Shown in pieces: positions 3,440-60,838 of a DNA stretch of 64,000 bases. Below the pieces are notes generated by a model. The model ran no database searches, had not been told where the DNA came from, and worked only from the letters and a program-made list of their open reading frames with translations. Location of the stretch: positions 398,456-462,455 of the IMG/VR virus record IMGVR_UViG_3300049044_000033, one strand, 5' to 3'. Positions within the stretch are counted from its first letter, which is position 1; each line of letters begins with the position of its first letter. Made by a program: the position numbers and the translations under genes. This stretch comes from a virus. Taxonomy: Duplodnaviria; Heunggongvirae; Uroviricota; Caudoviricetes.

Positions 3440-3754
3440 TTACGAAATTTGCCACGCCTGGTGACCACCTCGAAGTTTAAACATCAAGGCATCGTTATTG
3501 TCCTCAAAGCGAACAACCATAGTGTATTCGCCTGACTTCTTGGACTTTGGATGTTGGAAATTATACGAGGACCACTCGCCGGGGCAGTTCTCTTTAAGCC
3601 ACTCTTGGACCTTCTTTACAGCATCCCAGCTATCGGGAACTATAAACTGAACGCGAGTCCAAGATAGGTTCATTGGACCCTGTTGGTTCAGGCGTAGAAG
3701 TTCTCTGGTCGAGACTTCTAAGTCAGTAAATCGGATAACTTCTGGCTGTTTCAT
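3440..3754 (-). CDS. FKLxW-motif family small protein
   Basis: VQEWLKENCPGEW...VVRFEDNNDALMFKLRGG. Confidence 0.7.
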   Translation of the reverse strand: MKQPEVIRFTDLEVSTRELLRLNQQGPMNLSWTRVQFIVPDSWDAVKKVQEWLKENCPGEWSSYNFQHPKSKKSGEYTMVVRFEDNNDALMFKLRGGHQAWQIS

Positions 3755-20586: not shown

Positions 20587-20841
20587 TCACATCCATGTTA
20601 GTTTAAACAACATTGCTGCCTTAGGGTCCTCGATATCAAGATAGAATATCAAGTAGGTGCATTCTCCGTCACCCTTGCCTAGGTCACGTCTTTCCTGCAT
20701 TGGATAGGCGTCATACTCGAGAGACCTAGAATCTAGCCATTCCTTAACCTCATCACTGAGGACCAGGTCAAAATCTGCCGGGTCATCAGGATGGGATAAG
20801 TTACGCCACTCATATAGAGGTTTGTAGAGCTCGAAGATCAC
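20587..20841 (-). CDS. FKLxW-motif family small protein
   Basis: VKEWL...LDIEDPKAAMLFKLTWM. Confidence 0.75.
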   Translation of the reverse strand: MIFELYKPLYEWRNLSHPDDPADFDLVLSDEVKEWLDSRSLEYDAYPMQERRDLGKGDGECTYLIFYLDIEDPKAAMLFKLTWM

Positions 20842-21209
20842 GCCTTGACCGGATACTCAGCAAAGCTACCATTCTCGCCATCCTCAGATACCTCAATGGT
20901 AATGTGACGACCAGGATACTTGTTGGTGATCTGCCCATAAAGATCATCGCTGATCATCTCGCAAGACTTATAGTCGAGTTCGAGAGTACCAGTACCGTAG
21001 AGGCTTTCGAGCCAACGCTTGAACTGGATGAATTCAAGATCACGGTCATCGTGGAACACTTCGATCCACACCTTGAACTTGAACATGTGGCGATGATCAT
21101 AACCTAGGAACTGAACATCTGCTAGGTTGGGATCAGTAAGGGCTGCGGGGTATTTGTGGACACCCTCTTTTTGGAAAGTGACCCATATCATCTTAAAGTC
21201 TTCTGTCAT
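20838..21209 (-). CDS. QueD-like T-fold protein
   Basis: EGVH.Y, HRHMF, DRDLEFI, KSCEM, VSEDGENG. Confidence 0.78.
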   Translation of the reverse strand: MTEDFKMIWVTFQKEGVHKYPAALTDPNLADVQFLGYDHRHMFKFKVWIEVFHDDRDLEFIQFKRWLESLYGTGTLELDYKSCEMISDDLYGQITNKYPGRHITIEVSEDGENGSFAEYPVKA

Positions 21210-21245
21210 ACCTATTTGTAACAGAATAGGTGAACAGGAGCAATA

Positions 21246-21575
21246 TTATCTGGAGAGCTTCCTAATCAAAGCAGCACTGCGAAGCTTTCGATAAACTGAG
21301 AACTTCGCTAACTCAGGATTGACGAAGATACGGATACCATAGAAATACTCGTGGCGACCTCGAGCTAATTTCTGGTAGAACGGATTCTCTTTTATATCAT
21401 GATCAGAGAGGACCCGCTGTTTTACTCCTGGTTCACCTACGACTAGGAATCCGTCAGGGATGAAGCGTTCCATCATTTTGCGGATACGCTGGTAGTCTTC
21501 AAGGTTAGTTTGAAGCTTGATATACAGATGGTCAGGATGACTACCCTTAGAATAGTTTGTAACTTCTCTGATCAT
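21246..21575 (-). CDS. hypothetical protein
   Basis: 109 aa, coupled. Confidence 0.55.
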   Translation of the reverse strand: MIREVTNYSKGSHPDHLYIKLQTNLEDYQRIRKMMERFIPDGFLVVGEPGVKQRVLSDHDIKENPFYQKLARGRHEYFYGIRIFVNPELAKFSVYRKLRSAALIRKLSR

Positions 21576-21811
21576 AGCCAGGTCAACTTAAACAAAAGAG
21601 CTTTAGCGTCATCATTAAACGTGAACTCGCCCCATCGGTATGACGACACGCGAACGGAGAATGATGCCTTGTTATCTTCACACCATTGCTGAACCTTTGG
21701 ATACAAGATAGCTGTCCAGGATCGACAGCTCAACTGGTCGAGGTAGCACAGAGGTTCTATACCAACTCTACGATTGGTATCGCACTTTGTAGGGACAAGC
21801 AATGTAGTCAT
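21572..21811 (-). CDS. FKLxW-motif family small protein
   Basis: VQQWCEDN...FTFNDDAKALLFKLTWL. Confidence 0.75.
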   Translation of the reverse strand: MTTLLVPTKCDTNRRVGIEPLCYLDQLSCRSWTAILYPKVQQWCEDNKASFSVRVSSYRWGEFTFNDDAKALLFKLTWL

Positions 21812-22122
21812 GGCCGATAGACTAGTCGCTTATTAGCAATCATCTCATTGAACTCGCCTACAAAGATATGCTCTCTTGGAATGTTCCATTCCAAGGCAAA
21901 GTGTCTTGCCTCTTTGATATCATAGAACCTCACATAGGATTCTTGAAGAGCCCGTTTGTAGTGGATCTTTACCGACTTAGGTCGGAAGGATTTCTGACGG
22001 ATGGCAAACCAATAGATCAGTAAGGGATCATACTCACGATACCAGCGCTTCATATCAACATCGAAATCTCTGGATTCCCAGACCCAATGCTCCCTGCGGT
22101 TGAGGATGACACTAACTTCCAT
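21808..22122 (-). CDS. FKLxW-related family protein
   Basis: VRFYDIKEARHFALEW; close paralog of 22157..22567. Confidence 0.7.
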   Translation of the reverse strand: MEVSVILNRREHWVWESRDFDVDMKRWYREYDPLLIYWFAIRQKSFRPKSVKIHYKRALQESYVRFYDIKEARHFALEWNIPREHIFVGEFNEMIANKRLVYRP

Positions 22123-22156
22123 AGCCCTAGCTAGCAGGGTATGGATCCTAACGTCA

Positions 22157-22567
22157 TTATTCGAGAATGAATAGATGGTTTATAGGATACCGACTAAGGA
22201 CGAAGTCAGTTGCAAACTGGATCTTCGCGGTAACCTTAGGAAGTTCCTTGTCGACTACCTTTAGCCACCACTTCTCATCAGTCCTGATACAAATCTCTGG
22301 GATATCAAAGATCAGGGCAAAGAGTCGAGCAGCCTTAAGATCGTCGAACCGCAGAGAGACGACCTTCTTGTTACGCTGGCGGTTCTTGGTCCGGTTATTA
22401 TAGATGGAAGAGACTTTGAACTGAGGCTTATTCTTCTGCGCATTCAACCATTCGTATAAGATGGGATCCATGATCCTATGATAGCTTCCACGATGAACGC
22501 TATTAACGTTTGAATCCCACATCCAATGTAGATTTCGGGTTAGGATGATATCTACGCTCATAAGCAC
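22157..22567 (-). CDS. FKLxW-related family protein
   Basis: LYEWL...LRFDDLKAARLFALIF. Confidence 0.7.
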   Translation of the reverse strand: MLMSVDIILTRNLHWMWDSNVNSVHRGSYHRIMDPILYEWLNAQKNKPQFKVSSIYNNRTKNRQRNKKVVSLRFDDLKAARLFALIFDIPEICIRTDEKWWLKVVDKELPKVTAKIQFATDFVLSRYPINHLFILE

Positions 22568-22685
22568 CTCAAGTCTGCCGTATATCCATTATACAACAAA
22601 CCTAATCTAAAATCAAGCTAAACCCTTGAGAAGTCGCTTGATTCCGCGGTTTTCTGAGGTGAAAGGTGAACTAAAAAGTCACCTT

Positions 22686-22937
22686 TCAGAGCCAAGTGAG
22701 CTTAAACAAGGTAGCGTGTCGGGGATTCTCAAAATAGATCGTTCGATGACGGTGATCAGGTGATTCGCCGTATTGGAATGGAATATTTTGAGAAGTTAGC
22801 CATTCCTGAATCATATCCTTTAGACGGAATCGACTATTGTAATAGGGGTCGGCAGAACTTTTCCAGAGACGTTTATCCAAGATAACATGTCGATGGTCTA
22901 ATCCAAGAAGCTGAGGGTTTGAATAAATCACAACCAC
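22686..22937 (-). CDS. FKLxW-motif family small protein
   Basis: IQEWL...IYFENPRHATLFKLTWL. Confidence 0.75.
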   Translation of the reverse strand: MVVIYSNPQLLGLDHRHVILDKRLWKSSADPYYNSRFRLKDMIQEWLTSQNIPFQYGESPDHRHRTIYFENPRHATLFKLTWL

Positions 22938-23146
22938 CTCATCTTAAACAACATCGCGGACTTACGATCTGGTATGTGTATGATACCTTGTTGGTGAGAT
23001 AATACACGAAAGGAAAATTCCACCTTATGCTCGATTAACCACAAGGTAACCTTACGGGACAAACCTACACGGGTGATAGCATGATTGCTGCTACTATCGA
23101 CAAACTCTAAAAAGGAGCGATCCAAATCAAAGGCGTTATCAAACAT
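22928..23146 (-). CDS. FKLxW-motif family small protein
   Basis: VTLWL...IHIPDRKSAMLFKMRWL. Confidence 0.72.
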   Translation of the reverse strand: MFDNAFDLDRSFLEFVDSSSNHAITRVGLSRKVTLWLIEHKVEFSFRVLSHQQGIIHIPDRKSAMLFKMRWL

Positions 23147-24959: not shown

Positions 24960-25265
24960 TTAGACTATTTTGACTTCGCATTGGCCACCAAAGCGACCCG
25001 TACCATCAGTGAAGACCTCAACCGCGTAGTTGTCAGAATCCAGCTGAGACGCGAATTTAGTAAATGCTTCCATGTCTTCAGTGGGGATGATCCAGTTGAC
25101 ACCCTTCTTGCCATGAGTCTGGGAGATCAAATAACCACCCCAGCGCAAGTTAGGAAAGTCAGCGAATAGAAGTTCTCCCGTCCGCCGTTCGCACCTAGAT
25201 AGTTCCTCCCGGCTAGGAGTATTCTTACGGTTAATTAGGAGAACTCTATTCATTTCATTCCTCAA
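24960..25265 (-). CDS. hypothetical protein
   Basis: 101 aa, coupled to the polB stop. Confidence 0.5.
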   Translation of the reverse strand: MRNEMNRVLLINRKNTPSREELSRCERRTGELLFADFPNLRWGGYLISQTHGKKGVNWIIPTEDMEAFTKFASQLDSDNYAVEVFTDGTGRFGGQCEVKIV

Positions 25266-28249
25266 AAGCTAAAGAGATCATTAAACGTGGTGTCTTCTCG
25301 AGTCTCACTCAAGTCCCACTTCAACACACCAATCAGGTTGTTGATCTTCTTGTCGATGATCGTGTCTTCCATCAACTCAGAGTCGAAAGGAAGTTCCTTA
25401 TACCACTCTGGCAAGTTGTGCTCGTCAATTGGATAAGCAACGCTATCCATCTTCAGAGGGTTTGGCCTCAGCTTACAAACAATAACCTTCTGACCATCTT
25501 GAATTTCCATCGCATAATGGTCATTGTAGAGCTTGCGAAGCGTGTTCCAATGGATCGCTGCTTGAACGTGTCCGGGAACCCTGACCTTCTCCTTTGGACC
25601 AGACTTCATGATATCCTTCTTGCCGTCTCCGGCAGTCATGCGGCTAACATAGCCCGTAATACCATTAACCTTCTTAGGGGTGCCCTGCTGGTACCCAGGG
25701 AGAGCTCGGAAGTCCTTGCGGAACTCACGAATCATATCGAAAATCAATTCCTTACTACCACCATCTAGCAGAGTGGTGATAATTTTTTCAAGAAATTCCT
25801 GCATAATTTTTGGCGTATCGGCGCGCTTGAGATCTAGACCAACGGCCTTAATCTTACCTGGCTTACCGTTAACGTCAAGACGCACGTTGTCCTTGTCATA
25901 CATTAGGAGCGCATAACGCTTCTTAGTGATGAAGAGACCACGACTTGCAATTAGTTCTCGACCTGCCTTAATGATTGCACCGCGCTCAAGACCAGTATTG
26001 AAAGCAGTATCCATGAAGGGTGGGAAGCTTTCATTGACTGCATTACCAATACCATCATAAAGCTCAATCATCGCATCACGATCATTAAGCATGAAGGACA
26101 GTTCTGGATCATTCTTCAACATGTGGTATGCTGTGAAGTAAACCGAGTCAGTGTCGTTATAGAGAATTGCATCTCCACGAACGTCATAGACGCCAGTGAT
26201 GATCTCATTAGTCTTGCTGCTCATGTGCTTGGTAATAGAGCGACCTGTCAGCGTAACCGACTGACCAATGCGAGCGTCGTAGAAGCGACAACCTTCGTTG
26301 AGGAGCGCACCATAGAGGGAGTTCAGAAGAATCTTACGAGCCTGCTGCCTCTGGTTCCAGAACACTTCATGTTCCTTGGCTTCCTTCTTGTGAGCATCCT
26401 CAATAATAATGAGGTTGTTCTCGATGCGAATAAAGCCATCGCCGACGAGGAAGTCAATTGCATCCTTGTCGCCTGCCTTGATGAAATCAGCTAGGTCGGC
26501 AAACTCAACTTTATTCCTACCATGTTCAACACCGGTCTTGAACTTGTCCCAGTCGACTTCAAAGCCCTTACCAGTAGCTGCCGCTTCACTGAATACAGTT
26601 TCCTTGAACTGCATTGCCTTACGTTCAGAATACCAGCGAGCCAGTAGACCCGGGATGATTGCTTCTACGTCGGTCCTGAAGATAGTACCATTAGCCGTGA
26701 TACAGTAGGGGTTGCCCTGAAGGAAGATGTATTCGTATAGCTGATCACCAGTTACCTGAATCGAGTTACCATCTTCAAAGTCAACGGTCATTACTTCGTT
26801 GGACTTATCAGCAACCATCTGATATTCTAAAGTGCTAAACAGACCTTCCCAACATTCCGGACCGGGAATACCCTGAGCCAATCGACTGTCAATGAGCGCG
26901 TTGGTGCGCTGAAGTCTGATCTGCCCCACAAGAGTCTCTGGACCCATGTTGAGAGCACGAAGTGCTGATGGATACAGGGAGTTGATGTCGCAGCAAGCAA
27001 TCTCGTCATGCAGACCAATCTTAGGCTTAGCCACATAGGCACCGACCACAGGTCGCTTACCGTCTGCGAACTTGAAACTACTTTCTTCGCCATCCTCATC
27101 GTCTTCATCGATATCTTCCTCGATATCAACTTCCCAATCAGGCTTTTTGCGATTAGGCACACATACACCACGCGAGTGAGCCTCGTTGATGATTGCCTGT
27201 TCAATCAGTGCCACAGATCCCATTGTTGTAGGAAGCAGAACTGTATTCGTGTGAGCAATCTGATTAGCCAGTTCGATGAAGCGCTTCTTCTGGTCAATCT
27301 TGTAGAGCAGAAGAGTGTCCTGGCGGTTGTATTCTAGGAACTTGAGAAAGTCCCTCTTATACAAGTTGTCTAGGCTTCCCTCGTAGGGAATCTTGTTTTC
27401 CTTGACCTCAATCTCACCCACATAGTCAAGACGATAGCTGTGGAGTTCCTGAGGATTGTGCTTCTTATAAAGTTCCAAATAGTCAAGGTGGATCCTGCCG
27501 ATTAGATCGTAGGTGTTATGTTCCTTCTTGAATTGGATATACTTCTTCTTACGTGGACGCTGGTTCCACAAACACATCCTCTTGCTATGATCCTTACCCA
27601 TCAGCCGCTCAATGCGATTGACCACGTAGGGAATATCGAAGCCTTTGGAGTTCCAGCCACTCAATACGTCCGAGTCCTCAATGAGGTCTAGAAAGATGTC
27701 AAGCATCTGAACTTCGTCATTACACAAAATTGTATTAGGCAAGCTCTTACAGATTGCTTCAGCGGCTTCCCAAGTCAGATGATCCTTATCACTTTCTGGC
27801 AAGTTTGGCTTCAAGCAGAGAGTGAAGAGTTCATTGTCTTGACTGCGATGGACTGAGATTGCCGTGATTGCGCTGAACGGATCATCCGGACGAGCAAAGC
27901 CACGCATTGGATCAAAGTCCACCTCAATATCGAAGAAAGCTAAGTTGAGAACCGGAGTATCTGCACCAAGGTAGTTTTCTTCAAGACATCGAAAGACAGG
28001 ATTGATATCGCTTTCATGAATCTTACGACTACCCTGCATCCTCAGTTCATTTTGGAACTTCTTGTGCGAGGTAAACGTGCTCTTAGCGACTGGGCGGCCC
28101 CACATATCTTTGTAGCGACCAGCACGAGGATCTTCATAGTAGAAAACGTAGGAGGCCGGAATAGAGCGATAAACCCTCTGGCCTTCAACTCGTTCTACAA
28201 CGAGAATCTCGTCCTTTTCTTTGTCATGGATAGCATCCACGTAGGCCAT
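25262..28249 (-). CDS. family B DNA polymerase (gp43-like)
   Basis: Exo FDIEV, GWNS..FDIPY, YN..D; pol DINSLYPS, KILLNSLYG, YNDTDS, KKRY; clamp-binding-like tail FNDLFSF. Confidence 0.96.
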   Translation of the reverse strand: MAYVDAIHDKEKDEILVVERVEGQRVYRSIPASYVFYYEDPRAGRYKDMWGRPVAKSTFTSHKKFQNELRMQGSRKIHESDINPVFRCLEENYLGADTPVLNLAFFDIEVDFDPMRGFARPDDPFSAITAISVHRSQDNELFTLCLKPNLPESDKDHLTWEAAEAICKSLPNTILCNDEVQMLDIFLDLIEDSDVLSGWNSKGFDIPYVVNRIERLMGKDHSKRMCLWNQRPRKKKYIQFKKEHNTYDLIGRIHLDYLELYKKHNPQELHSYRLDYVGEIEVKENKIPYEGSLDNLYKRDFLKFLEYNRQDTLLLYKIDQKKRFIELANQIAHTNTVLLPTTMGSVALIEQAIINEAHSRGVCVPNRKKPDWEVDIEEDIDEDDEDGEESSFKFADGKRPVVGAYVAKPKIGLHDEIACCDINSLYPSALRALNMGPETLVGQIRLQRTNALIDSRLAQGIPGPECWEGLFSTLEYQMVADKSNEVMTVDFEDGNSIQVTGDQLYEYIFLQGNPYCITANGTIFRTDVEAIIPGLLARWYSERKAMQFKETVFSEAAATGKGFEVDWDKFKTGVEHGRNKVEFADLADFIKAGDKDAIDFLVGDGFIRIENNLIIIEDAHKKEAKEHEVFWNQRQQARKILLNSLYGALLNEGCRFYDARIGQSVTLTGRSITKHMSSKTNEIITGVYDVRGDAILYNDTDSVYFTAYHMLKNDPELSFMLNDRDAMIELYDGIGNAVNESFPPFMDTAFNTGLERGAIIKAGRELIASRGLFITKKRYALLMYDKDNVRLDVNGKPGKIKAVGLDLKRADTPKIMQEFLEKIITTLLDGGSKELIFDMIREFRKDFRALPGYQQGTPKKVNGITGYVSRMTAGDGKKDIMKSGPKEKVRVPGHVQAAIHWNTLRKLYNDHYAMEIQDGQKVIVCKLRPNPLKMDSVAYPIDEHNLPEWYKELPFDSELMEDTIIDKKINNLIGVLKWDLSETREDTTFNDLFSF

Positions 28250-29476: not shown

Positions 29477-29737
29477 TTAATCTTTATGGTATTTGAGCTT
29501 GAGGATTAAAGCAATGTTAGGATCGTCAGTCTCAGCATCCATGTATTGCTCTTGGCTACCATCTGATAGACTTCTTACCTTTCCAAGCTGAACAAAGACG
29601 TTTCCAAGTTCGCGGATTTCCTCAGCAGTGAGCCAGATAGTTTCTGGATCTAAGACCATGCTGAGAAGCCAATATGGTTTTCCCGTCTTGTCCCGGTAGG
29701 AATGGAGTTGTCCACTCAAGGCAGTTGACCATTCCAT
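29477..29737 (-). CDS. FKLxW-related family protein (divergent)
   Basis: ETDDPNIALILKLKY. Confidence 0.55.
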   Translation of the reverse strand: MEWSTALSGQLHSYRDKTGKPYWLLSMVLDPETIWLTAEEIRELGNVFVQLGKVRSLSDGSQEQYMDAETDDPNIALILKLKYHKD

Positions 29738-29964
29738 CGGGTTAAAAACAAAGCAGCATCTCGGGGTTCAGCGAACCATACCCCATCGGTATGCGGATTG
29801 TAGTGACCTTTGATCGCAACATTGATCCAAGGCTGGACTTCTTCATCCCACCAAACTGCGAGCTTATCATGGCGGGATAGATCGGTATTCTTAACCATAC
29901 CCAATTGGGTCCAGAATATCGTAACACTACGAAGAACCAAACGGTGGTCGTCGAACTCTTCCAT
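29716..29964 (-). CDS. FKLxW-motif family small protein
   Basis: VQPWI...VWFAEPRDAALFLTRW. Confidence 0.7.
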   Translation of the reverse strand: MEEFDDHRLVLRSVTIFWTQLGMVKNTDLSRHDKLAVWWDEEVQPWINVAIKGHYNPHTDGVWFAEPRDAALFLTRWNGQLP

Positions 29965-30410
29965 TAGCCCCAGACCAACTTAAAAATTGCAGCATCGCGC
30001 TTGCGACGGAACTTATATCGGAAAGGATTGATCTTGATATAGCCGCTCTTTGAGCATTTATTCACCCAATCGGCGATCTCATGTTTGACCTCATCCGAGC
30101 CCTTAAGGCGTTCTTGATCAACGAGCTTCTTAGTATCAACGGTGATGGTAGTCCCGCCGAAGATAGACCACCACTTCATTGGATTTTTCTGCTTTAGAAA
30201 CAAAGCAGTGAAGAACATCAGGAAGGGGAAAGCGAAGATAAAAGAATCGTTCAAAGTAAAGGGCTTACCTTGAACGAAATGCCCGACCAAAAGCGCAGGC
30301 CATCCGCCAATAATACAAGCCAGCACGACCATGATAGTTGGCCCGGCCTCGCTGATCATTAGCCAGTCGATAGATCTACCGAATAACCCCCGTCTGTCTT
30401 GCTCGTTCAT
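29964..30410 (-). CDS. membrane-anchored FKLxW-motif family protein
   Basis: Two TM segments, then IADWV...YKFRRKRDAAIFKLVWG. Confidence 0.72.
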   Translation of the reverse strand: MNEQDRRGLFGRSIDWLMISEAGPTIMVVLACIIGGWPALLVGHFVQGKPFTLNDSFIFAFPFLMFFTALFLKQKNPMKWWSIFGGTTITVDTKKLVDQERLKGSDEVKHEIADWVNKCSKSGYIKINPFRYKFRRKRDAAIFKLVWG

Positions 30411-47500: not shown

Positions 47501-49852
47501 TTACGCGATTTCAGTGAGTTCCAGGACTTCAGCCTCAGGAAGAGGAGTAGCCTGGATATCTAGCACCAAAGCATCATCAGCTACGCTGACTAGCACCATG
47601 CCACCACGCTTGAGGTCACTGAACAACATTGCCCGGCTAAGAGGCTGTGAGAGTTCATTCTGAATCAAACGAGCCAGAGGACGCGCACCCATCTTGGGAT
47701 CATAACCCTTACGAGCCAGATATTCAAATGCATCGTCACCAAGAGCAATTGTTACACCCTTGCTATTAGCCATCTTGTTCAGCTGGGCAATGAACTTCTT
47801 CACGATGCGGATCATGTTCTCGCTCTTGAGAGCGTTGAACTTCACGATTGCATCCAGTCGGTTACGGAACTCAGGAGCAAACATCTTTTCAATGACCTTG
47901 TCATCGTTGCCTGCAACCGAATTGTCACCAAAGCCCAAGGTGTTCTTCGCAAGCTCACTTGCACCAGCATTGCTGGTCATGATCAGGATCACGTTGCGGA
48001 AGTTCACCGTCTTGCCTGCGCTGTTGGTCAACTGGCCATTATCCATGACCTGCAGGAAGATGTTGAAAATGTCCGGGTGAGCCTTCTCAAGTTCGTCGAT
48101 GAGAAGGACGCAATGAGGACTATTCTCAACCGCGTTGGTCAGAAGACCCGAACCCGACGCACCATCACCAAATCCAACATAACCCGGAGGGCTACCAATG
48201 AACTTAGAGACACTGTGCTTCTCCATGTATTCGCTCATATCGAAACGATGTAGAGGAATATTCAGAGTGGCAGCAAGCTGCTTCGCAAGCTCAGTCTTAC
48301 CTACGCCCGTAGGACCAGCAAAGAGGTAGCTACCCTGTGGTTTGTTGGGATCGCGCAGACCAGCACGGCTGAGGATGACCGCATCATCGAGAGTCTCGAC
48401 AGCCTTGTCCTGACCAAACACCGCGTTGAGCAGGTCTTCCTTGAGGTGAGCCAGCTTTGCGGTCTCGTCTTCCTTGACCGACTGAGCAGGGATCTTAGCC
48501 ACTCGGCTTACTTCTTCCTCAATGAGGTCGAGAGTAATAACCGATTTGCGTTCGCCCTCTGGAGCAATGCGCTGACGAGCACCAGCCGCGTCGATGACGT
48601 CGATGGCCTTATCGGGAAGCATCTTGTCCGTCACATAACGGGCAGTCAATTCCACAGCAGCATTCAGAGCTTCTTCGTCGTAGGAAATACCGTGGTATTC
48701 AGCATAGACGTTCGAGAGACCAGCAAGGATGCGCTTTGCGTCCTCAATACTAGGTTCGAGGATATCCAGCTTCTGGAAGCGACGCAGGAGTGCCCGGTCC
48801 TTCTCAAAGTGCTTACGATATTCCTCGTAGGTCGTGCCACCGATGCAACGCAGCTTGCCCTTGGCCAGAGCCGGCTTGAGCAAGTTCGCAACATCGAGAG
48901 CACCATTGCTACCTGCGCCAGCACCCATCATGGTGTGGATTTCGTCGATGAAGAGGATAACGGGAACGTCCTTTTCCTCACCGACCTTCTCGATAGCATC
49001 GAGAATCTGCTTCACACGCTCTTCCATGTCGCCACGGAACTTTGTGCCGGCCATCAGTGCGCCGATTTCCAGCGAGTAAACAATGCCACCCTTGAGAGCG
49101 TCAGGGACATTACCCTCAGCAATCATCTTAGCCAGGCCTTCGACAACAGCAGTCTTACCCACGCCGGGTTCACCGACGATGACTGCGTTGTTCTTGGTGC
49201 GCCGAGCAGTGGTCAAAATCAAACTCGCAACTTCTGCCTCACGACCAATCAGAGGGTCAATCTTGCCTTCCAGGGCTTGTTCGTTGAGGTTGACGCAGAA
49301 CTTATCCAGAAGGCGTTCGTTCTTGGACTTCTTAGGGCCCTTGTCTTCGTCAGCAGTTCCGCCTTCGTCAAGCTTCCTAGTCTCAATAACAGCATCGTCA
49401 TCGTCTAGCAGGTCATCATGTGCGACTGCTGATTTAACGTCGAAGACATCGAGATTTTGCTTGGCCAGGAAGTAACAAGCAAAATTGCTATCGTCACCAC
49501 TCTCATTCAAGATAGCAATGAGAATGTCAGTAGCTCTGAAGTCATGCCGACCGCTAAACAGAACCTGGCTAACCGTGCGCTGGACAACTCGACCCAAGCT
49601 AACAGTCTGACGAGGCTCTGCCCCATGTGCCTTACCCAACACACCTGCGTTAAAGTGGTTGAGAAGATCAGCACTCAAATCGCTCATGTTCACACCAAGC
49701 TCTGTCATCACTTCAATGACACGCTTGTCCTGAATCACAGCGGCAAGAAGGTGCTCAAGAGTCACATACTCGTGATCATGACGCCTAGCAATCTGCATCG
49801 CCTGATCAATGATCTCCTGGGCACGAGTAGGATCGAAATCTTCAACGGCCAT
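47501..49852 (-). CDS. clpA: ClpA ATP-binding chaperone subunit
   Basis: HEYVTLEHLL, IDPLIGR, GEPGVGKT, FIDEIH, GPTGVGKTE, FDMSEYMEKH, MGARPL; no ClpB middle domain. Confidence 0.93.
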   Translation of the reverse strand: MAVEDFDPTRAQEIIDQAMQIARRHDHEYVTLEHLLAAVIQDKRVIEVMTELGVNMSDLSADLLNHFNAGVLGKAHGAEPRQTVSLGRVVQRTVSQVLFSGRHDFRATDILIAILNESGDDSNFACYFLAKQNLDVFDVKSAVAHDDLLDDDDAVIETRKLDEGGTADEDKGPKKSKNERLLDKFCVNLNEQALEGKIDPLIGREAEVASLILTTARRTKNNAVIVGEPGVGKTAVVEGLAKMIAEGNVPDALKGGIVYSLEIGALMAGTKFRGDMEERVKQILDAIEKVGEEKDVPVILFIDEIHTMMGAGAGSNGALDVANLLKPALAKGKLRCIGGTTYEEYRKHFEKDRALLRRFQKLDILEPSIEDAKRILAGLSNVYAEYHGISYDEEALNAAVELTARYVTDKMLPDKAIDVIDAAGARQRIAPEGERKSVITLDLIEEEVSRVAKIPAQSVKEDETAKLAHLKEDLLNAVFGQDKAVETLDDAVILSRAGLRDPNKPQGSYLFAGPTGVGKTELAKQLAATLNIPLHRFDMSEYMEKHSVSKFIGSPPGYVGFGDGASGSGLLTNAVENSPHCVLLIDELEKAHPDIFNIFLQVMDNGQLTNSAGKTVNFRNVILIMTSNAGASELAKNTLGFGDNSVAGNDDKVIEKMFAPEFRNRLDAIVKFNALKSENMIRIVKKFIAQLNKMANSKGVTIALGDDAFEYLARKGYDPKMGARPLARLIQNELSQPLSRAMLFSDLKRGGMVLVSVADDALVLDIQATPLPEAEVLELTEIA

Positions 49853-50349
49853 TACTTCTTCCTTTCACGCTTATCGCGCTTTTTCTTTGCCATATCCAGC
49901 GTGAGCTTACTAACTCGGCTGGTAAAGCAAACACCATCCAGATGGTCCAGTTCATGTTGGAAGCACCTAGCCGCCATACCGTTCAGGAGTCCTTCAACTA
50001 CCTGACCGTCTGAGGTTTGGTATCGAACCTGCACATAAGCTGGTCTTTTGACTTTGAAAAATAGCCCAGGGAAGCTGAGACATCCTTCTTCAACCACAAC
50101 AGGATCACCTATGCTGTATAGGACTTTCGGGTTGTAGAAAAAGCAGATTTCATTGTCGATCTTCATCGCAAAAACGCGATAGAGAAAACCCATCTGGTTA
50201 GCCGCAAAGCCAACCCCGCCATGCTCTTCCATCAGACGAGCGAGCTCGTCCTCAACCGCAGTAGCATCGGCTGGCGGATTCTCGAAGTCCCATTCGGAAC
50301 TAGCGGTATAGAGAGTTTCAGCCTCATCGGTCTGAAGAGTAAATTTCAC
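49852..50349 (-). CDS. def: peptide deformylase
   Basis: GVGFAANQ, EGCLS, QHELDHLDG. Confidence 0.94.
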   Translation of the reverse strand: MKFTLQTDEAETLYTASSEWDFENPPADATAVEDELARLMEEHGGVGFAANQMGFLYRVFAMKIDNEICFFYNPKVLYSIGDPVVVEEGCLSFPGLFFKVKRPAYVQVRYQTSDGQVVEGLLNGMAARCFQHELDHLDGVCFTSRVSKLTLDMAKKKRDKRERKK

Positions 50350-50509: not shown

Positions 50510-51358
50510 TCAAGACTTTCTTTGATCCCTAAGGCTGATCAAAGTCTGGCGTTCTTCCTCGCTGAGCTTTTCAGGAGAGATGACCACTTCGACCATCATG
50601 TCACCACGACGGCCATCAGCTAGAGGCATACCCTTGCCTGCTGCCCTCAATGATTGACCCGGATGAATACCGGCCGGAATACGCATCTTAATCCTAGAAC
50701 CCTCAATGGTAGGGATTTCTACCTCAGAACCAACCAACGCATCCAAATATCCAATAGATGCAGAGGTGACTAGATTATCCCCTACACGGGCGAAAGTAGG
50801 ATGAGGGATGACATTGATGCGAATGTAGAGATCACCCGGCTTCACGTTCTTCATAGCATCATCTCCTTTGCCTTGGAAACGAAGCTTGATGCCATCCTGG
50901 ATACCTGCTGGGATCTTGATCTTGATCTCTTGGGTTTCCTTATTGGGAAGGTTATACTGGATAGAGGCCTCCTTCCCGGTGAAGCTTTCCTCTAACGTGA
51001 TCGAGTAAGCAAGACGAATGTCGTGGTTTCGAGCATCGTCGCCAAATGGATTCCTGGACCTGCGGATATCTTTGAGAATCTCCTCAATATCAACATCAGG
51101 GCTGTATGGTTGATTTGACCAATGGAAGGTCTGATTACCTCGGAAGCCACCGGAACGCTGGGCATCATACTGGGCGCGCTTCTGCTGATCTTTGAGAACC
51201 TCATAGGCTTCATTGATCTCTTTGAATCGCTCTTCAGCAGCCTTGTCACCGGGTTTTAAGTCGGGATGATTTTCCTTTGCAAGCTTACGATAAGCAGACT
51301 TGATAGTCCCATCATCAGCTGTGGATTGAACGCCTAAAACCTGGTAAAAATCTTTCAT
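50510..51358 (-). CDS. dnaJ: DnaJ/CbpA-type J-domain chaperone
   Basis: DFYQVLGV, HPD, EAYEVL; DnaJ C-terminal domain without Zn finger. Confidence 0.92.
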   Translation of the reverse strand: MKDFYQVLGVQSTADDGTIKSAYRKLAKENHPDLKPGDKAAEERFKEINEAYEVLKDQQKRAQYDAQRSGGFRGNQTFHWSNQPYSPDVDIEEILKDIRRSRNPFGDDARNHDIRLAYSITLEESFTGKEASIQYNLPNKETQEIKIKIPAGIQDGIKLRFQGKGDDAMKNVKPGDLYIRINVIPHPTFARVGDNLVTSASIGYLDALVGSEVEIPTIEGSRIKMRIPAGIHPGQSLRAAGKGMPLADGRRGDMMVEVVISPEKLSEEERQTLISLRDQRKS

Positions 51359-51445: not shown

Positions 51446-51784
51446 ATGACTGATTTGTTCAACAAGGTATATGAGACTAACCGCCAGCGAGTCATGGACA
51501 TTTTCGATCGTCGTATGCTCAAACTAGGCGAAGAATATGGCGAAGCATGTCAGGCCTTTCTGAGTGTTTCTAGTGAAAACAACAGCAAGAAGAAATCTTG
51601 GGCTGATGTTCGTGAGGAACTCGTTGATGTCTTGGTTGTCACTCTAGACCTACTCTGTCATCAGATGCCCGATGAAAAGGACATGACAAGAGAGGAGAAG
51701 TTCGCTAGCGTGGAAAAGATTTTTGACCACAAGCTAGACAAGTGGGTCAAGAAGATTAAGAAAAGTGAGGACACTAGCAAGTGA
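51446..51784 (+). CDS. MazG-like nucleotide pyrophosphohydrolase
   Basis: KLGEEYGE, EELVDV, KLDKW. Confidence 0.8.
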   Translation: MTDLFNKVYETNRQRVMDIFDRRMLKLGEEYGEACQAFLSVSSENNSKKKSWADVREELVDVLVVTLDLLCHQMPDEKDMTREEKFASVEKIFDHKLDKWVKKIKKSEDTSK

Positions 51785-52086
51785 AATATGTTCAAGCCCT
51801 AAAGCCAGAGAAGCACAACGGCGGGGCTTTCTTTGAGCATGAGATTCACTTCGAGTTGAAGGGCTATGGCCATTACATGGGCTCCCATCAGCTTCGGAAG
51901 AACATCGAAGAATTTGTAAACGAACACATTGGTTCCAAACATACTGACTTCCGTGTTTCGGTTCAGATAAAATATGTTCGACCAGATACCTCTAAGTTCA
52001 GTCCCGCAGAACCAATTGCCACTGTAAAGGTCAGGTTCACCGATAAGAATAAGGCTTTGCGCTTTAAACTTTCCTGGCCACAATAA
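51781..52086 (+). CDS. FKLxW-motif family small protein
   Basis: VKVRFTDKNKALRFKLSW; shares HNGG..F.HE with the next gene. Confidence 0.75.
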   Translation: MKYVQALKPEKHNGGAFFEHEIHFELKGYGHYMGSHQLRKNIEEFVNEHIGSKHTDFRVSVQIKYVRPDTSKFSPAEPIATVKVRFTDKNKALRFKLSWPQ

Positions 52087-52124: not shown

Positions 52125-52745
52125 ATGGAATATCGCTACGCAGAACCTCCCTTTAGACATAACGGCGGCAAATGGTTTGGCCATGAGGTCATTTTGTATG
52201 TTAATCCAAAACGCCTAGTTGAATTTAAAGACACTATCACTGCTATAGCGGGGAAGATAGGTGAGGGCTGGCGTTTATCCCACAAGACTCCCTTTAGTGT
52301 GTTTGAACATGGCAAACAGATAGTCCGGTTTTTGGATAAGAAAACTGCGATGCGTTTCAAGCTCACTTGGGAGCCTTGTGAGGAAGAAACCCTAGACGAC
52401 CTACAAAAGCTGTTTAAGAAGATAGCTCTGAATAGCCAGTATGGCTCCATGAATAAATTCAACTTCTCAGCACTTCGAGCAGCTAGCAATCCAATAAGTC
52501 AGATAACTCCCTATAGTTCTGGTATCTACCCTCTTATGACCTCGTCGGGTAAAACCATGAGCCAGATTTATCAGGCTAAATCTCGATACAACCGTTACAG
52601 TTTGCAGGATACTGAAGCAGCCTACTTGGATTACCTTTGGTCTGATATTGAGAGTAAAACTCTGAATGGTTGTAAGAACCGTCGCGATACGGTGATGACG
52701 ACTGAAGAACTAAAGAAAAGGCTCGACAATGGAACTGAATCGTAA
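52125..52745 (+). CDS. FKLxW-motif protein fused to a PolB motif-B-like segment
   Basis: VRFLDKKTAMRFKLTW followed by QKLFKKIALNSQYGSMN. Confidence 0.7.
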   Translation: MEYRYAEPPFRHNGGKWFGHEVILYVNPKRLVEFKDTITAIAGKIGEGWRLSHKTPFSVFEHGKQIVRFLDKKTAMRFKLTWEPCEEETLDDLQKLFKKIALNSQYGSMNKFNFSALRAASNPISQITPYSSGIYPLMTSSGKTMSQIYQAKSRYNRYSLQDTEAAYLDYLWSDIESKTLNGCKNRRDTVMTTEELKKRLDNGTES

Positions 52746-53250
52746 TCGCCCCGAAACGGCTCTAAAGAAGCGCCGTCATTTCAAGGACGGGTTCACCTTC
52801 TGGATCAAGCCCAGTCGTATGTCTGAACTTAGGGCGTGGCTTAGGTCTTCGGGTTTAAAGAGCAAGAAACATTATTTGCTCAGCTCTCTAAATAGCACCA
52901 GACGTATCTTGCTCAGCAACAGTAACCGACAGCTGGACCTATCTACCCAATACGTGATCTCGTTTAGAGAGAAGGATAAGGCTGCTCTCTTCAAGCTGTC
53001 ATGGAGCGAATGCGAGGTAGGAACCCCCGATGTTATCTTGCCACTCATACGCAGAGTTATGCCTAGTATTATCGCTCAGGATATTATCGGGGTTTCGCCA
53101 ATGACAGGACCGACTGGCTCGATTTTTGCTATGCGATCCAACTACGCGGGGAATCAAGGGGCCACGTCGTCCTCTCCCAACCAATCTCTTTCTAATTCAA
53201 TTCGACCTGACGAGTCAACAGACGAGTCGGGTTCGAATTCGCACCTCTGA
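52729..53250 (+). CDS. FKLxW-motif protein fused to a gp23 Gol-peptide-like segment
   Basis: ISFREKDKAALFKLSW followed by VILPLIRRVMPSIIAQDIIGVSPMTGPTGSIFAMRSNY. Confidence 0.8.
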   Translation: MELNRNRPETALKKRRHFKDGFTFWIKPSRMSELRAWLRSSGLKSKKHYLLSSLNSTRRILLSNSNRQLDLSTQYVISFREKDKAALFKLSWSECEVGTPDVILPLIRRVMPSIIAQDIIGVSPMTGPTGSIFAMRSNYAGNQGATSSSPNQSLSNSIRPDESTDESGSNSHL

Positions 53251-53358: not shown

Positions 53359-53889
53359 GTGGCGTTTAATATAATAGAGCCATTTCGCTCAGATAGAAAC
53401 GAGAAAGAATACCTAATGGAACCAGCACCGCATATCTTTTGTGACTTCGATGGCGTCTTAGTAGACTTCGAAAGAGGCTTCGAAATCCAGTATGGCAAGA
53501 AGCACTCTGATGTTCCCGAGTTCGTGATGTGGAAGATCATCAAAGCTAACATGACCCACTGGGAACAATTGCCTGCGATGCCGGGTGCTCTCCAGCTCTG
53601 GGCTTATATTGCCCATCGTGAACCAACAATTCTAACTGGTTGTCCTAGCTCTGGATATCAGCAGGCAGGTGAAGGGAAGACGGTTTGGAAGAATCGTGAA
53701 CTAGGTGAGCATGTTCCGATCATCACATGTTTGTCTCGCTATAAGCCCAAGCATATGAAAGCCCCTGGTGATATCTTGATTGATGACATGGAAAAGAATA
53801 CAAAGCGTTGGGAAGAAGCTGGTGGCATTGCGGTTCTCCATACTTGCGCGGCTTCTACGATTGAAAAGCTCAAGGAGTTAGGTCTGTGA
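53359..53889 (+). CDS. HAD 5'(3')-deoxyribonucleotidase-like protein
   Basis: FCDFDGVLVDF, ILTG, GK..W, ILIDD...N...WEEAGG; probable start at the second Met. Confidence 0.85.
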   Translation: MAFNIIEPFRSDRNEKEYLMEPAPHIFCDFDGVLVDFERGFEIQYGKKHSDVPEFVMWKIIKANMTHWEQLPAMPGALQLWAYIAHREPTILTGCPSSGYQQAGEGKTVWKNRELGEHVPIITCLSRYKPKHMKAPGDILIDDMEKNTKRWEEAGGIAVLHTCAASTIEKLKELGL

Positions 53890-54344
53890 CAGAACATGAT
53901 TTGGTTGGCGTTCTAATGGCCACAAACTTCCTTACCCTCGGTCTGGTTGCTCTTTTCTGGGCAAAGTCCGAAGGCCTCAAGATTGACCGTGCTCGCAGAC
54001 AGAGGGTCTTTAGCGGCGATCAGACTGGCGGTAACATTGATATTGCGGGTCGTCACTTCAAAGGCAACAATGTAGTGATCAAGGGCGGTAAGACCTTCGT
54101 TGATGGTCGAGATGTCTCTGACTATTTTGACGGCAATAAGGTTCTCGAGATTCGCCTCTCAGGACCTCTGGAAAATCTCACTACAACCGCTAACGTGACT
54201 TGTGATGATGTCTTGGGAGATGTTATCAGCGAAGGCAATGTGAATTGCGGAGACGTTAGGGGAGATGCTAAAGCCGGTGGAAATATTAACGCCGGTGATG
54301 TTTCGGGTTCTATTAAGGCTGGAGGTAATGTTGTTTGTGGATAA
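53886..54344 (+). CDS. membrane-anchored beta-helix repeat protein
   Basis: TM segment, then repeats GNVNCGDVRGDAKAGGNINAGDVSGSIKAGGNVVCG. Confidence 0.65.
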   Translation: MTEHDLVGVLMATNFLTLGLVALFWAKSEGLKIDRARRQRVFSGDQTGGNIDIAGRHFKGNNVVIKGGKTFVDGRDVSDYFDGNKVLEIRLSGPLENLTTTANVTCDDVLGDVISEGNVNCGDVRGDAKAGGNINAGDVSGSIKAGGNVVCG

Positions 54345-55720: not shown

Positions 55721-56104
55721 ATGGCACGCCGTCGTCGCAAAATTAGGGGGAAACCGCGCGGTCTAGTTAGTCTGCGATCTATAAGATTTCGCCTGAGGTC
55801 TCGCAAGCAATCTAAGCGGGATCGTCGCCGAAGTCGTAGGGCTCGACGTTCTCCTAATTTTTGGCGCGATATCAATAAGCTGACTTTCTCTAAAGCATTC
55901 ATTCAACCAGATGAATTACTCTGGCTAGAAGTCAATGCCCCAACGGCTAAGATAACTTTGGAGTATGTTCCAGGTTATCAGTATTGTCCCACCTACAAGT
56001 TAGGTAAATGGGATGGTAAAGCCTACGTGGTGAGGTTTGATCCAGAGGACGAAACCTTGTCATATGATTTCCGACATACTTGGTGGCACCGCAAATGTCG
56101 CTGA
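55721..56104 (+). CDS. Arg-rich protein with divergent FKLxW-like domain
   Basis: Protamine-like N-terminus; LLWLE...VVRFDPEDETLSYDFRHTW. Confidence 0.55.
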   Translation: MARRRRKIRGKPRGLVSLRSIRFRLRSRKQSKRDRRRSRRARRSPNFWRDINKLTFSKAFIQPDELLWLEVNAPTAKITLEYVPGYQYCPTYKLGKWDGKAYVVRFDPEDETLSYDFRHTWWHRKCR

Positions 56105-56424
56105 GGGGTAAAGCTACTGTCGTGGAATGTCAGATCTCTGACCTGAGTCAAGAAGCCTTGGATTGGCTTAACAGTGATAGTCCGGGTGACCTCTGTTGGG
56201 TTAAAAAGAATATTAGAGTTTGGCAAGAAGTAGTCCCGGCCGAAGATTTTACAAAATATTATACCAAGCTTAGTTTAGCTGGCCAACTCGCTAAGGAAGC
56301 TATATGTTATTTCTATTCACAAGATAGAGCTGCTGGTCTTCCTCTCAAACTCGATAAGTCGGTTGACGGTTTATTCTTTGCCAGCAACTCTGATGCTGTT
56401 TATTTTAAGATGAAGTTTCTATGA
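56080..56424 (+). CDS. FKLxW-motif family protein
   Basis: ALDWL...LFFASNSDAVYFKMKF. Confidence 0.7.
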   Translation: MVAPQMSLRGKATVVECQISDLSQEALDWLNSDSPGDLCWVKKNIRVWQEVVPAEDFTKYYTKLSLAGQLAKEAICYFYSQDRAAGLPLKLDKSVDGLFFASNSDAVYFKMKFL

Positions 56425-56687
56425 AGCCTTTATTCTACATGTTGGCACAACATGGTCCATGGACATGTCATGTGAGGTTTACTTCATCTGAAGCTTTCAA
56501 TAAGGCTTGTGAGTGGCTATATGAAGGAGGAAAAGTAGAAGCTGTTGACTTTGAGACCCTTGTTAGTGGTATTCAGAATGGCTCTAGGTATGCAGGAGAC
56601 ACGAGCGTAAACACACTAGATCGATTGATCTTTTTCAAAGACACAAAGCTGGCCAGCTATGTGAAGTTGACGTGGGGCGGTAGGTGA
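56421..56687 (+). CDS. FKLxW-motif family protein
   Basis: ACEWL...IFFKDTKLASYVKLTWGG. Confidence 0.72.
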   Translation: MKPLFYMLAQHGPWTCHVRFTSSEAFNKACEWLYEGGKVEAVDFETLVSGIQNGSRYAGDTSVNTLDRLIFFKDTKLASYVKLTWGGR

Positions 56688-57049
56688 AACATAACTTAGA
56701 TGTATTTAGGAATCCCGAATACCGTGAAGCTGCGGTTAAATCCATACAAGATTTGGAAACAACCAAGGACGGCTATTTGCTCTATGAGATCTTAAAAGAT
56801 CTTCTGACCAAACAGGGCGAATGGGACTTTGAGCAAGAAGTCAAGGATTTCCCACATGGTTTGGAGATTGATCGATTGGGTGACGAAAACTTCGGGGCAG
56901 GTCTGACCCAATGGCTAGATTCTACCGTGGGGAAAGACAATTATGTCCTGATGCCTAGATCAGCGTTTGGCAAATACCATGATAAGTGGAACTGGGTGTT
57001 CTTCAAACAAAAAGACCACGCAGCTCTCTTTAAGCTTACGTGGCTGTGA
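56684..57049 (+). CDS. FKLxW-motif family protein
   Basis: TQWLDSTVG...VFFKQKDHAALFKLTWL. Confidence 0.75.
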   Translation: MKHNLDVFRNPEYREAAVKSIQDLETTKDGYLLYEILKDLLTKQGEWDFEQEVKDFPHGLEIDRLGDENFGAGLTQWLDSTVGKDNYVLMPRSAFGKYHDKWNWVFFKQKDHAALFKLTWL

Positions 57050-60550: not shown

Positions 60551-60838
60551 ATGGATTATGAGCAGCATTATACGGATCATTTGATTCACCTCACATTAGA
60601 GGAAACTGATCGTTTCTTTGCTCCCTTTGATCCACATGATCCGGGATTACCGAGTTACCTGTTGAATTCGAGGCATCGATTCATAAAGGATGAACTTTAT
60701 GAATGGCTTATGCTACACGTAGGAGCAGTTGGTTTAGATTGGAATCATGAAAGACTTGGCCGTGATTGCCGAACTATTCGGTTTAAGTCCAAAGACAAGG
60801 CTGCTCTGTTTAAGTTGACCTTTGGCGGTCAGACTTAA
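60551..60838 (+). CDS. FKLxW-motif family small protein
   Basis: LYEWLMLHVG...DW...IRFKSKDKAALFKLTFGG. Confidence 0.75.
   Translation: MDYEQHYTDHLIHLTLEETDRFFAPFDPHDPGLPSYLLNSRHRFIKDELYEWLMLHVGAVGLDWNHERLGRDCRTIRFKSKDKAALFKLTFGGQT

Follow-up and report, generated by a model that had tools for sequence, protein, structure and literature searches.

P0001, a 206-amino-acid protein encoded at positions 52125-52745 on the plus strand of the window, is a member of a conserved jumbo-phage subfamily in which a ferredoxin/RRM-like carrier domain of about 80 aa is followed by an acidic linker and a tail of about 100-150 aa. Judged from its sequence, it is neither a polymerase nor an RNR or helicase, and it belongs to a previously undescribed protein family. 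The tails are made of short blocks that resemble, with moderate statistical support, loops for catalysis or substrate binding in core phage enzymes. We put at roughly 0.35 the probability that these tails are displayed mimics, which could serve as decoys, pseudosubstrates or competitors. The window is the whole stretch of DNA that was analysed, 64,000 nucleotides long, and corresponds to positions 398456-462455 of a virus record of 462,455 bp with direct terminal repeats and 47.5% G+C; coordinates below are those of the window unless the genome is named.

The gene, known from its ORF translation and its orthologues, is the second (p2) of three adjacent plus-strand paralogs. The upstream paralog, p1 (51781-52086), consists of the carrier only, stopping two residues past its FKLSW, and is syntenic in the related contigs L008, L009 and L010. 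The downstream paralog, p3 (52729-53250), which is translationally coupled to P0001 and whose start overlaps the end of P0001 by 17 nt, joins the carrier to a piece of the capsid protein (MCP), as established with Pfam Gp23, phrog_138, the phage's own MCP and orthologues. Directly upstream of the triplet is a syntenic MazG-like gene (51446-51784, plus strand; phrog_1247, E 1e-12), and directly downstream is a 5'-deoxyribonucleotidase (53359-53889, plus strand; phrog_2643, E 4e-36). A 152-aa ORF at 53886-54344, hydrophobic over an N-terminal stretch and containing repeats of G-G-N-[VI]-x-x-G-D-V, matches phrog_3163 (E 3e-16) and is syntenic in the relative L031. On the minus strand lie a ClpA/B-like ATPase of 783 aa (47501-49852), a peptide deformylase (49852-50349) and a full-length DnaJ (50510-51358), all of them ORF calls that are kept as neighbours in relatives. 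The proteostasis set encoded by the phage comprises these three and a ClpX-like ATPase (genome 227264-228514).

The same surroundings are found in other phages. The p2/p3 locus adjoins DnaJ and the ClpA/B-like gene in all the related contigs that were examined, distant phages of 326-481 kb among them; the pattern is a ClpA/B-like ATPase, usually a peptide deformylase, and DnaJ on the opposite strand, with a MazG-like gene upstream. For distant relatives this comparison of flanks used precomputed Pfam labels, and L013 was also compared. In the two longer relative loci examined, a NUDIX gene, an IF1-like gene and ClpP are found a few kb from the locus.

Relatives of P0001 are difficult to find with the protein itself. 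Among 50,697 isolate phage records, no DNA similarity to the locus was found and tblastn of P0001 returned nothing at E up to 1. Word-indexed protein searches (among proteins of near length, and among longer proteins for the tail alone) gave no relatives, and neither did a single-protein scan of viral contigs with P0001. Relatives were reached only by using the neighbouring nucleotidase gene (53359-53889) as query, which led to four contigs, and by profiles, a profile scan adding one more. The p2-p3 pair is syntenic in all five of these contigs, and p1 too in three. The orthologues of P0001 share 29-46% identity with it; counted by synteny, they occur in no fewer than six contigs of related jumbo phages. 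With a profile built from them the search can be taken much further: against 1.84 billion cluster representatives it retrieved 59 related proteins (P0001 itself at E 2e-74), about 35 of which are carrier-plus-tail proteins of 160-290 aa. P0001 shows every mark of this p2 type, namely an M-E-Y start, N-G-G-x-W-F-G-H, FKLxW, an acidic linker and collinear blocks.

The carrier belongs to a far larger family, of which an iterated HMM search of the genome's ORFs recovers about 96 paralogs of 63-140 aa. Their only common features are a central W-[LC] helix and a C-terminal F-K-L-x-W-G-G helix; P0001 has the corresponding domain of about 60-100 aa, with the central W-[LC] helix and F-x-[DN]-x3-A-x-x-F-K-L-x-W. 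Nearly all paralogs terminate 0-2 residues past the F-K-L-x-W(G-G) helix, and the tails of P0001 (122 residues) and p3 (79 residues) are the longest and second longest in the genome. A RiPP-like leader ending in G-G was considered for the family and dropped, because most members have no core peptide beyond G-G. The paralogs form arrays at about 23-37, 51-52, 95, 122, 233-237, 244-248, 391-402, 419-421, 428 and 450-459 kb of the genome. The long arrays are translationally coupled, with 40 genes at genome 23-37 kb; paralogs within the window include those at 1096-1410, 3443-3754, 20590-23146, 29719-30410, 56080-57046 and 60551-60835. For a typical carrier member modelled with 67 paralogs, AF2 predicts a beta-alpha-beta-beta-alpha order at a pLDDT of 75. 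Fold searches with the carrier gave generic ferredoxin/RRM-like matches alone (best Z 5.1), and no matching family was found in Pfam, PHROG, NCBIfam or PADLOC.

In P0001 the carrier occupies residues 1-82 (52125-52370; iterated HMM, E 8e-9 over residues 7-84) and closes with F-K-L-T-W at residues 78-82, which together with the M-E-Y start and N-G-G-x-W-F-G-H forms the subfamily signature. Alignments place the linker at residues 83-98 (52371-52418), and it is of the type common to the family, an E/D-rich acidic stretch with a Pro. The tail opens with a look-alike of PolB motif B, K99-x3-N103-S104-x-Y106-G107 (52419-52445), recognised by strict pattern, block profiles and codon comparison. The middle blocks (residues 121-143; 52485-52553) are weak matches, comprising a degenerate look-alike of the RNR alpha substrate-phosphate loop (G-I-Y-P) and a degenerate P-loop-like S-S-G-K-T. 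Further on, a D-T-E block (residues 159-167; 52599-52625) aligns with the hydrophobic-D-x-E-[SA] block of the family but is without the class II RNR-like N-P-C-x-E-I part, and the C-terminal block (residues 186-203; 52680-52733), of the T-V-M-T-T-E-E-L type, is common to about ten other family members. The tail of P0001 thus has its first block intact, its middle blocks degenerate and its N-P-C block missing. The AF2 model of full-length P0001 has a mean pLDDT of 59.8 and puts the motif-B block at a predicted helix end; there is no alignment depth over the tail, and the model is therefore uninformative on whether the tail folds.

The first block is what had drawn attention to the gene. The initial annotation had read the 18 residues encoded at nt 52401-52454 as a segment like DNA polymerase B motif B and had compared them with the window's own polymerase; the residues are exactly as quoted, the strict motif lies at residues 99-107, and the true motif B is found at residues 639-647 (26309-26335, minus strand) of a 995-aa PolB encoded at 25262-28249. 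A six-frame translation of all 462,455 bp of the genome contains strict K-x3-N-S-x-Y-G at just two places, PolB and P0001, where chance would give 0.07 occurrences in ORFs of 50 aa or more and 0.25 in all six frames. A profile of the block made from 16 sequences gave four matches among 177,635 PDB sequences, three of them polymerases at motif B: the best is phi29 PolB (E 0.017), and the next are two sequences of an 898-aa DNA polymerase (E 0.21). In the phage's own proteome the top match of this profile is PolB 635-649 (E 0.028; next match E 1), and hhalign of tail profiles against a PolB alignment covers 15-17 columns, always at motif B (P 0.0055 and 0.027). Shuffled controls, proposed from the start as a yardstick, gave a divided answer: Smith-Waterman alignment of the P0001 tail with PolB is not above shuffles (44 of 500 reach the score), whereas column-permuted versions of the block profile equalled the E of the real one, with anything, in only 2 of 40 trials.

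Beyond these few residues nothing like a polymerase is seen. Pfam DNA_pol_B (PF00136) matches neither P0001 nor its orthologues at E up to 10. A whole-tail profile from five orthologues has no PDB match at E up to 10, and among the phage's own ORFs it ranks PolB only 11th. Motifs A and C with their catalytic Asp are absent from P0001, which offers only the D-T-E about 60 residues downstream. MAFFT alignment with PolB placed this D-T-E at the right spacing for motif C, an extension that was rejected since D-x-E travels with the class II RNR-like N-P-C-x-E-I in the family and hhalign never passes motif B. The expectation that a profile search would tie the tail to PolB was accordingly disappointed, as no PolB profile detects the polymerase-like part of 9-17 residues. 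As an example of how good a chance match to a low-complexity region may look, P0001 residues 102-157 (about 52428-52595) in a phmmer search of the PDB have chloroplast NdhA (NuoH family) as their best match, at E 0.29 with 14/28 identities.

A second enzyme can also lay claim to this block. Three RNR alpha models align residues 90-154 of P0001 collinearly to the start of the catalytic barrel, with E-values of 1e-3 (Pfam), 0.016 (NrdJ_Z) and 0.042 (NrdE), all far under their cut-offs; PF02867 scores 18.2 bits against a gathering cut-off of 23.9, and NrdJ_Z 13.8 bits against 399.95. The N-x-C-x-E catalytic loop of RNR alpha is absent from P0001. Since these models also align weakly to residues 90-154, the origin of the first block is ambiguous, and the PolB reading and the RNR reading are both short, weak resemblances to a substrate-binding loop. 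Of the proposed polymerase epitope, the exact motif B holds up, but its assignment to the polymerase is clouded by RNR models that align a longer stretch at similarly weak E.

Whatever its origin, the block is kept for its amino acids. Of five distinct lineages, four retain K-x3-N-S-x-[YF]-G, and the closest, L008, has deleted it, which implies that the block is dispensable there. It is present in at least 14 divergent members, a count that is not made of independent cases because the tails are mutually related. Across orthologues the motif residues use different synonymous codons, Ser being encoded by both AGY and TCN, and the same is true of the capsid piece, which points to selection on the peptide and not on the DNA. 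A role at the DNA level, be it as a site for a homing endonuclease or for recombination, or through antisense pairing with the genuine genes, is excluded for this reason. If the motif was to mean anything, it was expected to be conserved among orthologues; it is conserved under protein-level selection, and the idea of a displayed segment survives on this count.

The remaining tail blocks extend the pattern. Tails consist of collinear short conserved blocks with variable spacers between them, and alignments show that the blocks are vertically inherited like one domain, and are not freely shuffled modules. In the commonest type (type A) the motif-B-like block is followed by G-G-x-R-R-G-A and by a third block ending in G-I-[EFHY]-P; against the phage's own RNR alpha, hhalign of a 16-tail profile best matches this block to residues 615-644, the substrate-phosphate loop (P 0.059). 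Fourth is a P-loop-like block, which in two members is a perfect P-T-G-S-G-K-T, a string also held by the ClpX-like ATPase of this genome. Then come Q-x-K-[SG]-R, N-P-C-x-E-I followed by D-Y-E, and either of two C-terminal blocks. The PDB matches of the N-P-C-x-E-I block profile are solely the class II RNR catalytic loop (E 0.11). In the second type of tail the order is [AG]-R-G-x-G-K-S, Q-x-x-G-R-G-I-R and N-P-L-P-W. Its G-R-G-I-R block has as its top match in the phage's own proteome motif VI of a UvsW-like helicase (439-447; E 0.012, equalled by 1 of 40 permuted profiles), and the N-P-L-P-W block has NrdB 328-338 (E 0.064, equalled by 3 of 40); in the PDB these two profiles find no helicase or RNR beta. 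Second-best matches of three block profiles in the own proteome have E of 0.8 or more. In three genomes, the presence of the N-P-C block can be set beside that of the enzyme, which is a hint only: G002 (locus L010, 90% complete) has a p2 with an intact N-P-C-x-E-I block and no RNR alpha gene was detected in it, and G000 and G001 have a class I RNR and p2 copies without the N-P-C block.

Single tails give scattered matches of the same kind. When 48 of them were scanned one by one against Pfam, seven matched Gp23, three the RNR barrel, one ResIII (E 9e-4), one DNA_pol_B_2 and one KaiC/AAA_25/DnaB_C (E 2e-4), and the remaining matches were to single, apparently unrelated families at E of 0.013 or more. 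In the tail scans there were matches to NrdJ and NrdE models as well. PADLOC matched no family, except for weak P-loop matches in one relative. A stretch of P0001 had been likened speculatively to a helicase Walker A; P0001 itself does not fit [AG]-x4-G-K-[ST], the Walker A pattern of P-loop/SF2 proteins, having L at the first position, and the suggestion gains ground only from the two relatives with P-T-G-S-G-K-T, one of which has the ResIII match. Even where P-T-G-S-G-K-T is complete, only about 25 residues separate it from the D-x-E block, short of the Walker B spacing. Within the phage's own proteome, each textbook motif pattern is found almost exclusively in its enzyme; these patterns were picked after the tails had been viewed, and the block-profile searches were not. 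The convergence of tails on the same own-proteome site is not significant alone, since the tails, being related, form clusters about as large when reversed. Each single resemblance is short (9-30 residues) and marginal. Collectively, that the matches keep falling on catalytic loops of core enzymes is improbable as chance, and the resemblance is likely to be real, by descent or by convergence.

An explanation that dispenses with mimicry is that the tail is a lineage-specific, fast-evolving and partly disordered region with motifs of its own, its likeness to enzymes being coincidence or loose convergence. We regard this as possible though rather unlikely. Nucleotide or phosphate may be bound by small loops rich in G, S, T, N and K, in keeping with the MazG, nucleotidase and NUDIX genes in the vicinity and the nucleotide metabolism that flanks the locus. 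The order of the blocks is constant across the family, every single resemblance is sub-threshold, the NdhA/NuoH match at E 0.29 is a comparable product of chance, and PolB and RNR, two unrelated families, both 'claim' the first block. Against this stands the outcome of the unselected profiles: three of four block profiles have a core-enzyme catalytic motif as top match in the own proteome, and two do so in the PDB. The cargo of p3 also speaks against it, being an unambiguous capsid fragment and no nucleotide-binding element.

The piece in p3 covers residues ~102-145 (53032-53163) and lies at the spot equivalent to the motif in P0001. It matches Pfam Gp23 (E 7e-15) and phrog_138 (E 2e-15), and is 54% identical to residues 75-128 (54 aa) of the phage's own MCP. 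Over 39 aa its identity to gp23/gp24 of T4-like cyanophages reaches 72%, and the pieces in P0036, P0043 and P0050 are closer to the MCP of this clade and a few residues longer upstream. The same gp23 segment forms the end of phrog_12830, a set of 'major head protein' entries of 128 positions: residues 100-134 of p3 match positions 93-127 of that profile (E 4e-5), the N-terminal part of which is unlike the carrier. The phrog_12830 entries may represent capsid genes that have been split or cut short, or capsid-piece proteins of a different kind. The claim that two tandem genes put conserved phage segments at the same place on the same carrier agrees with the distances past FKLxW, which are 14-18 residues for motif B in most motif-bearing tails and 12-20 residues for the MCP pieces.

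Different cargos can also occupy the same position in different phages. Fusions of carrier and fragment other than the first two were predicted and do exist, with seven Gp23 tails as well as P-loop, RNR-like and helicase-like pieces. In L031, for instance, the gene at the p3 position has a G-G-R-x-C-G-K-T piece and a D-Y-E-S-S block in place of the capsid piece, and P0040, with a P-loop piece, is the sister of the tailless P0045 on the carrier tree. On that tree, which was made quickly, cargo types are clustered and require at least 24 changes, compared with a minimum of 5, which suggests independent cargo fusions; its well-supported branches force no more than one origin of the capsid cargo, and the tree is poorly resolved. 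The earlier picture of a modular epitope system is therefore half right: cargo differs between related carriers, but within tails the blocks are collinear and passed on by descent.

Alternatively, the tails may be relics of captured gene fragments, mainly of RNR alpha with internal deletions and of capsid, that were fused to a member of an expanding family of small genes and have a role other than mimicry or are slowly decaying. The RNR models that align to residues 90-154, the presence of several RNR alpha-like blocks within one tail, the loss of blocks in some lineages (motif B in L008, N-P-C in P0001) and the capsid cargos that include residues upstream of the core segment matching the MCP of the clade all favour such an origin. 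It becomes improbable in view of the purifying selection on the blocks across lineages that are 20-45% identical, where synonymous sites are saturated. The RNR-like blocks are also out of RNR order, with the G-I-E-P-like block before the N-P-C-like one, and the N-P-C form is that of class II, whereas the phage's own RNR is of class I. Improbable too is that the proteins serve the adjacent proteostasis genes (DnaJ, ClpA/B-like, ClpX-like, ClpP, deformylase) as client mimics, regulators or adaptors that would adjust how chaperones or proteases act on the core proteins abundant in this phage: the constant position beside DnaJ and the ClpA/B-like gene, also in distant phages of 326-481 kb, ClpP a few kb away in relatives and the string shared with the ClpX-like ATPase are in its favour, but synteny alone is weak, the genes are divergently transcribed, and the tails match no known degron or adaptor.

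The display of mimics is the simplest functional reading because the conserved parts are short linear look-alikes of the least mutable segments of core proteins. The tails would occupy a factor that recognises such segments of the phage's most conserved proteins, and this would spare the real enzymes and the capsid protein, with the carrier supplying solubility or docking. The factor could be an immune sensor or effector of the host, similar to Lit or CapRel; another candidate is a chaperone or protease that would meet such segments in unfolded chains. A decoy bound to a sensor might also trigger it instead of blocking it. A wider proposal, which we hold only tentatively and consider rather unlikely in its full form, is a mimicry module in which carriers, encoded next to the chaperone and protease genes, present the least mutable core segments as linear copies (the capsid N-arm/Gol segment, polymerase motif B, RNR loops and P-loops) and exchange their cargo over evolutionary time. 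Such copies could soak up host sensors, modifying toxins or proteases, or could poison the homologous proteins of competing phages.

Should the tails prove to be functional mimics, they would be the first phage counter-measure against the recognition of short invariant peptides of core proteins. That would suggest that the reading of, or attack on, such segments by bacteria is much more widespread than is apparent from Lit/Gol, the one example, and the tails would provide a ready-made list of the segments that matter. Even if the decoy reading is set aside, the analysis defines a large uncharacterised family, with about 96 copies in this one genome, and a carrier-plus-tail subfamily that is conserved across many phages of 300-480 kb, is fixed beside chaperone genes, and has a sequence signature that is odd yet reproducible.

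Literature searches turned up no described family or system with a carrier-plus-tail architecture, and comparison can be made only with the parts. P0001 resembles PolB in meeting the nine-residue consensus of motif B exactly, at a predicted helix end, with phi29 and the 898-aa polymerase as best PDB matches; it differs in being a protein of 206 aa without motif A, motif C, exonuclease or palm, in which 9-17 residues align. The likeness to RNR alpha lies in the G-G-x-R-R-G-A, G-I-E-P and N-P-C-x-E-I look-alikes in the tails of relatives, whereas P0001 scores below every curated cut-off and lacks the catalytic Cys block, and the RNR-like blocks of the family are out of RNR order. As for sensing, Lit and CapRel have been cited as short-motif sensors of capsid protein, and other sensor families are reported to sense DNA polymerase and RecA/helicase-type ATPases (bioRxiv 10.64898/2026.01.04.697583). 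Most recently described sensors reportedly wrap folded cores and do not read linear motifs (bioRxiv 10.64898/2026.01.04.697583).

The concept of a virus-encoded look-alike that occupies a host defence factor is shared with two kinds of viral mimic. Poxvirus K3L mimics eIF2alpha, and the phage protein Ocr mimics DNA. These imitate one folded target or DNA, whereas the tail of P0001 is a string of look-alikes of loops from several enzymes, in a putative role. We know of no precedent for the recognition of a linear PolB or RNR motif. For the capsid segment, the nearest parallel comes from T4, in which the Gol peptide of gp23 is sensed, with EF-Tu, by the Lit protease. In that system the Gol peptide activates Lit and does not block it, and for the present phage no Lit-like gene or host is known. 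Gol is nevertheless a precedent for a host factor that reads a short linear segment of a core phage protein, and p3 holds the homologous capsid segment, free-standing, on the same kind of carrier as that of P0001.
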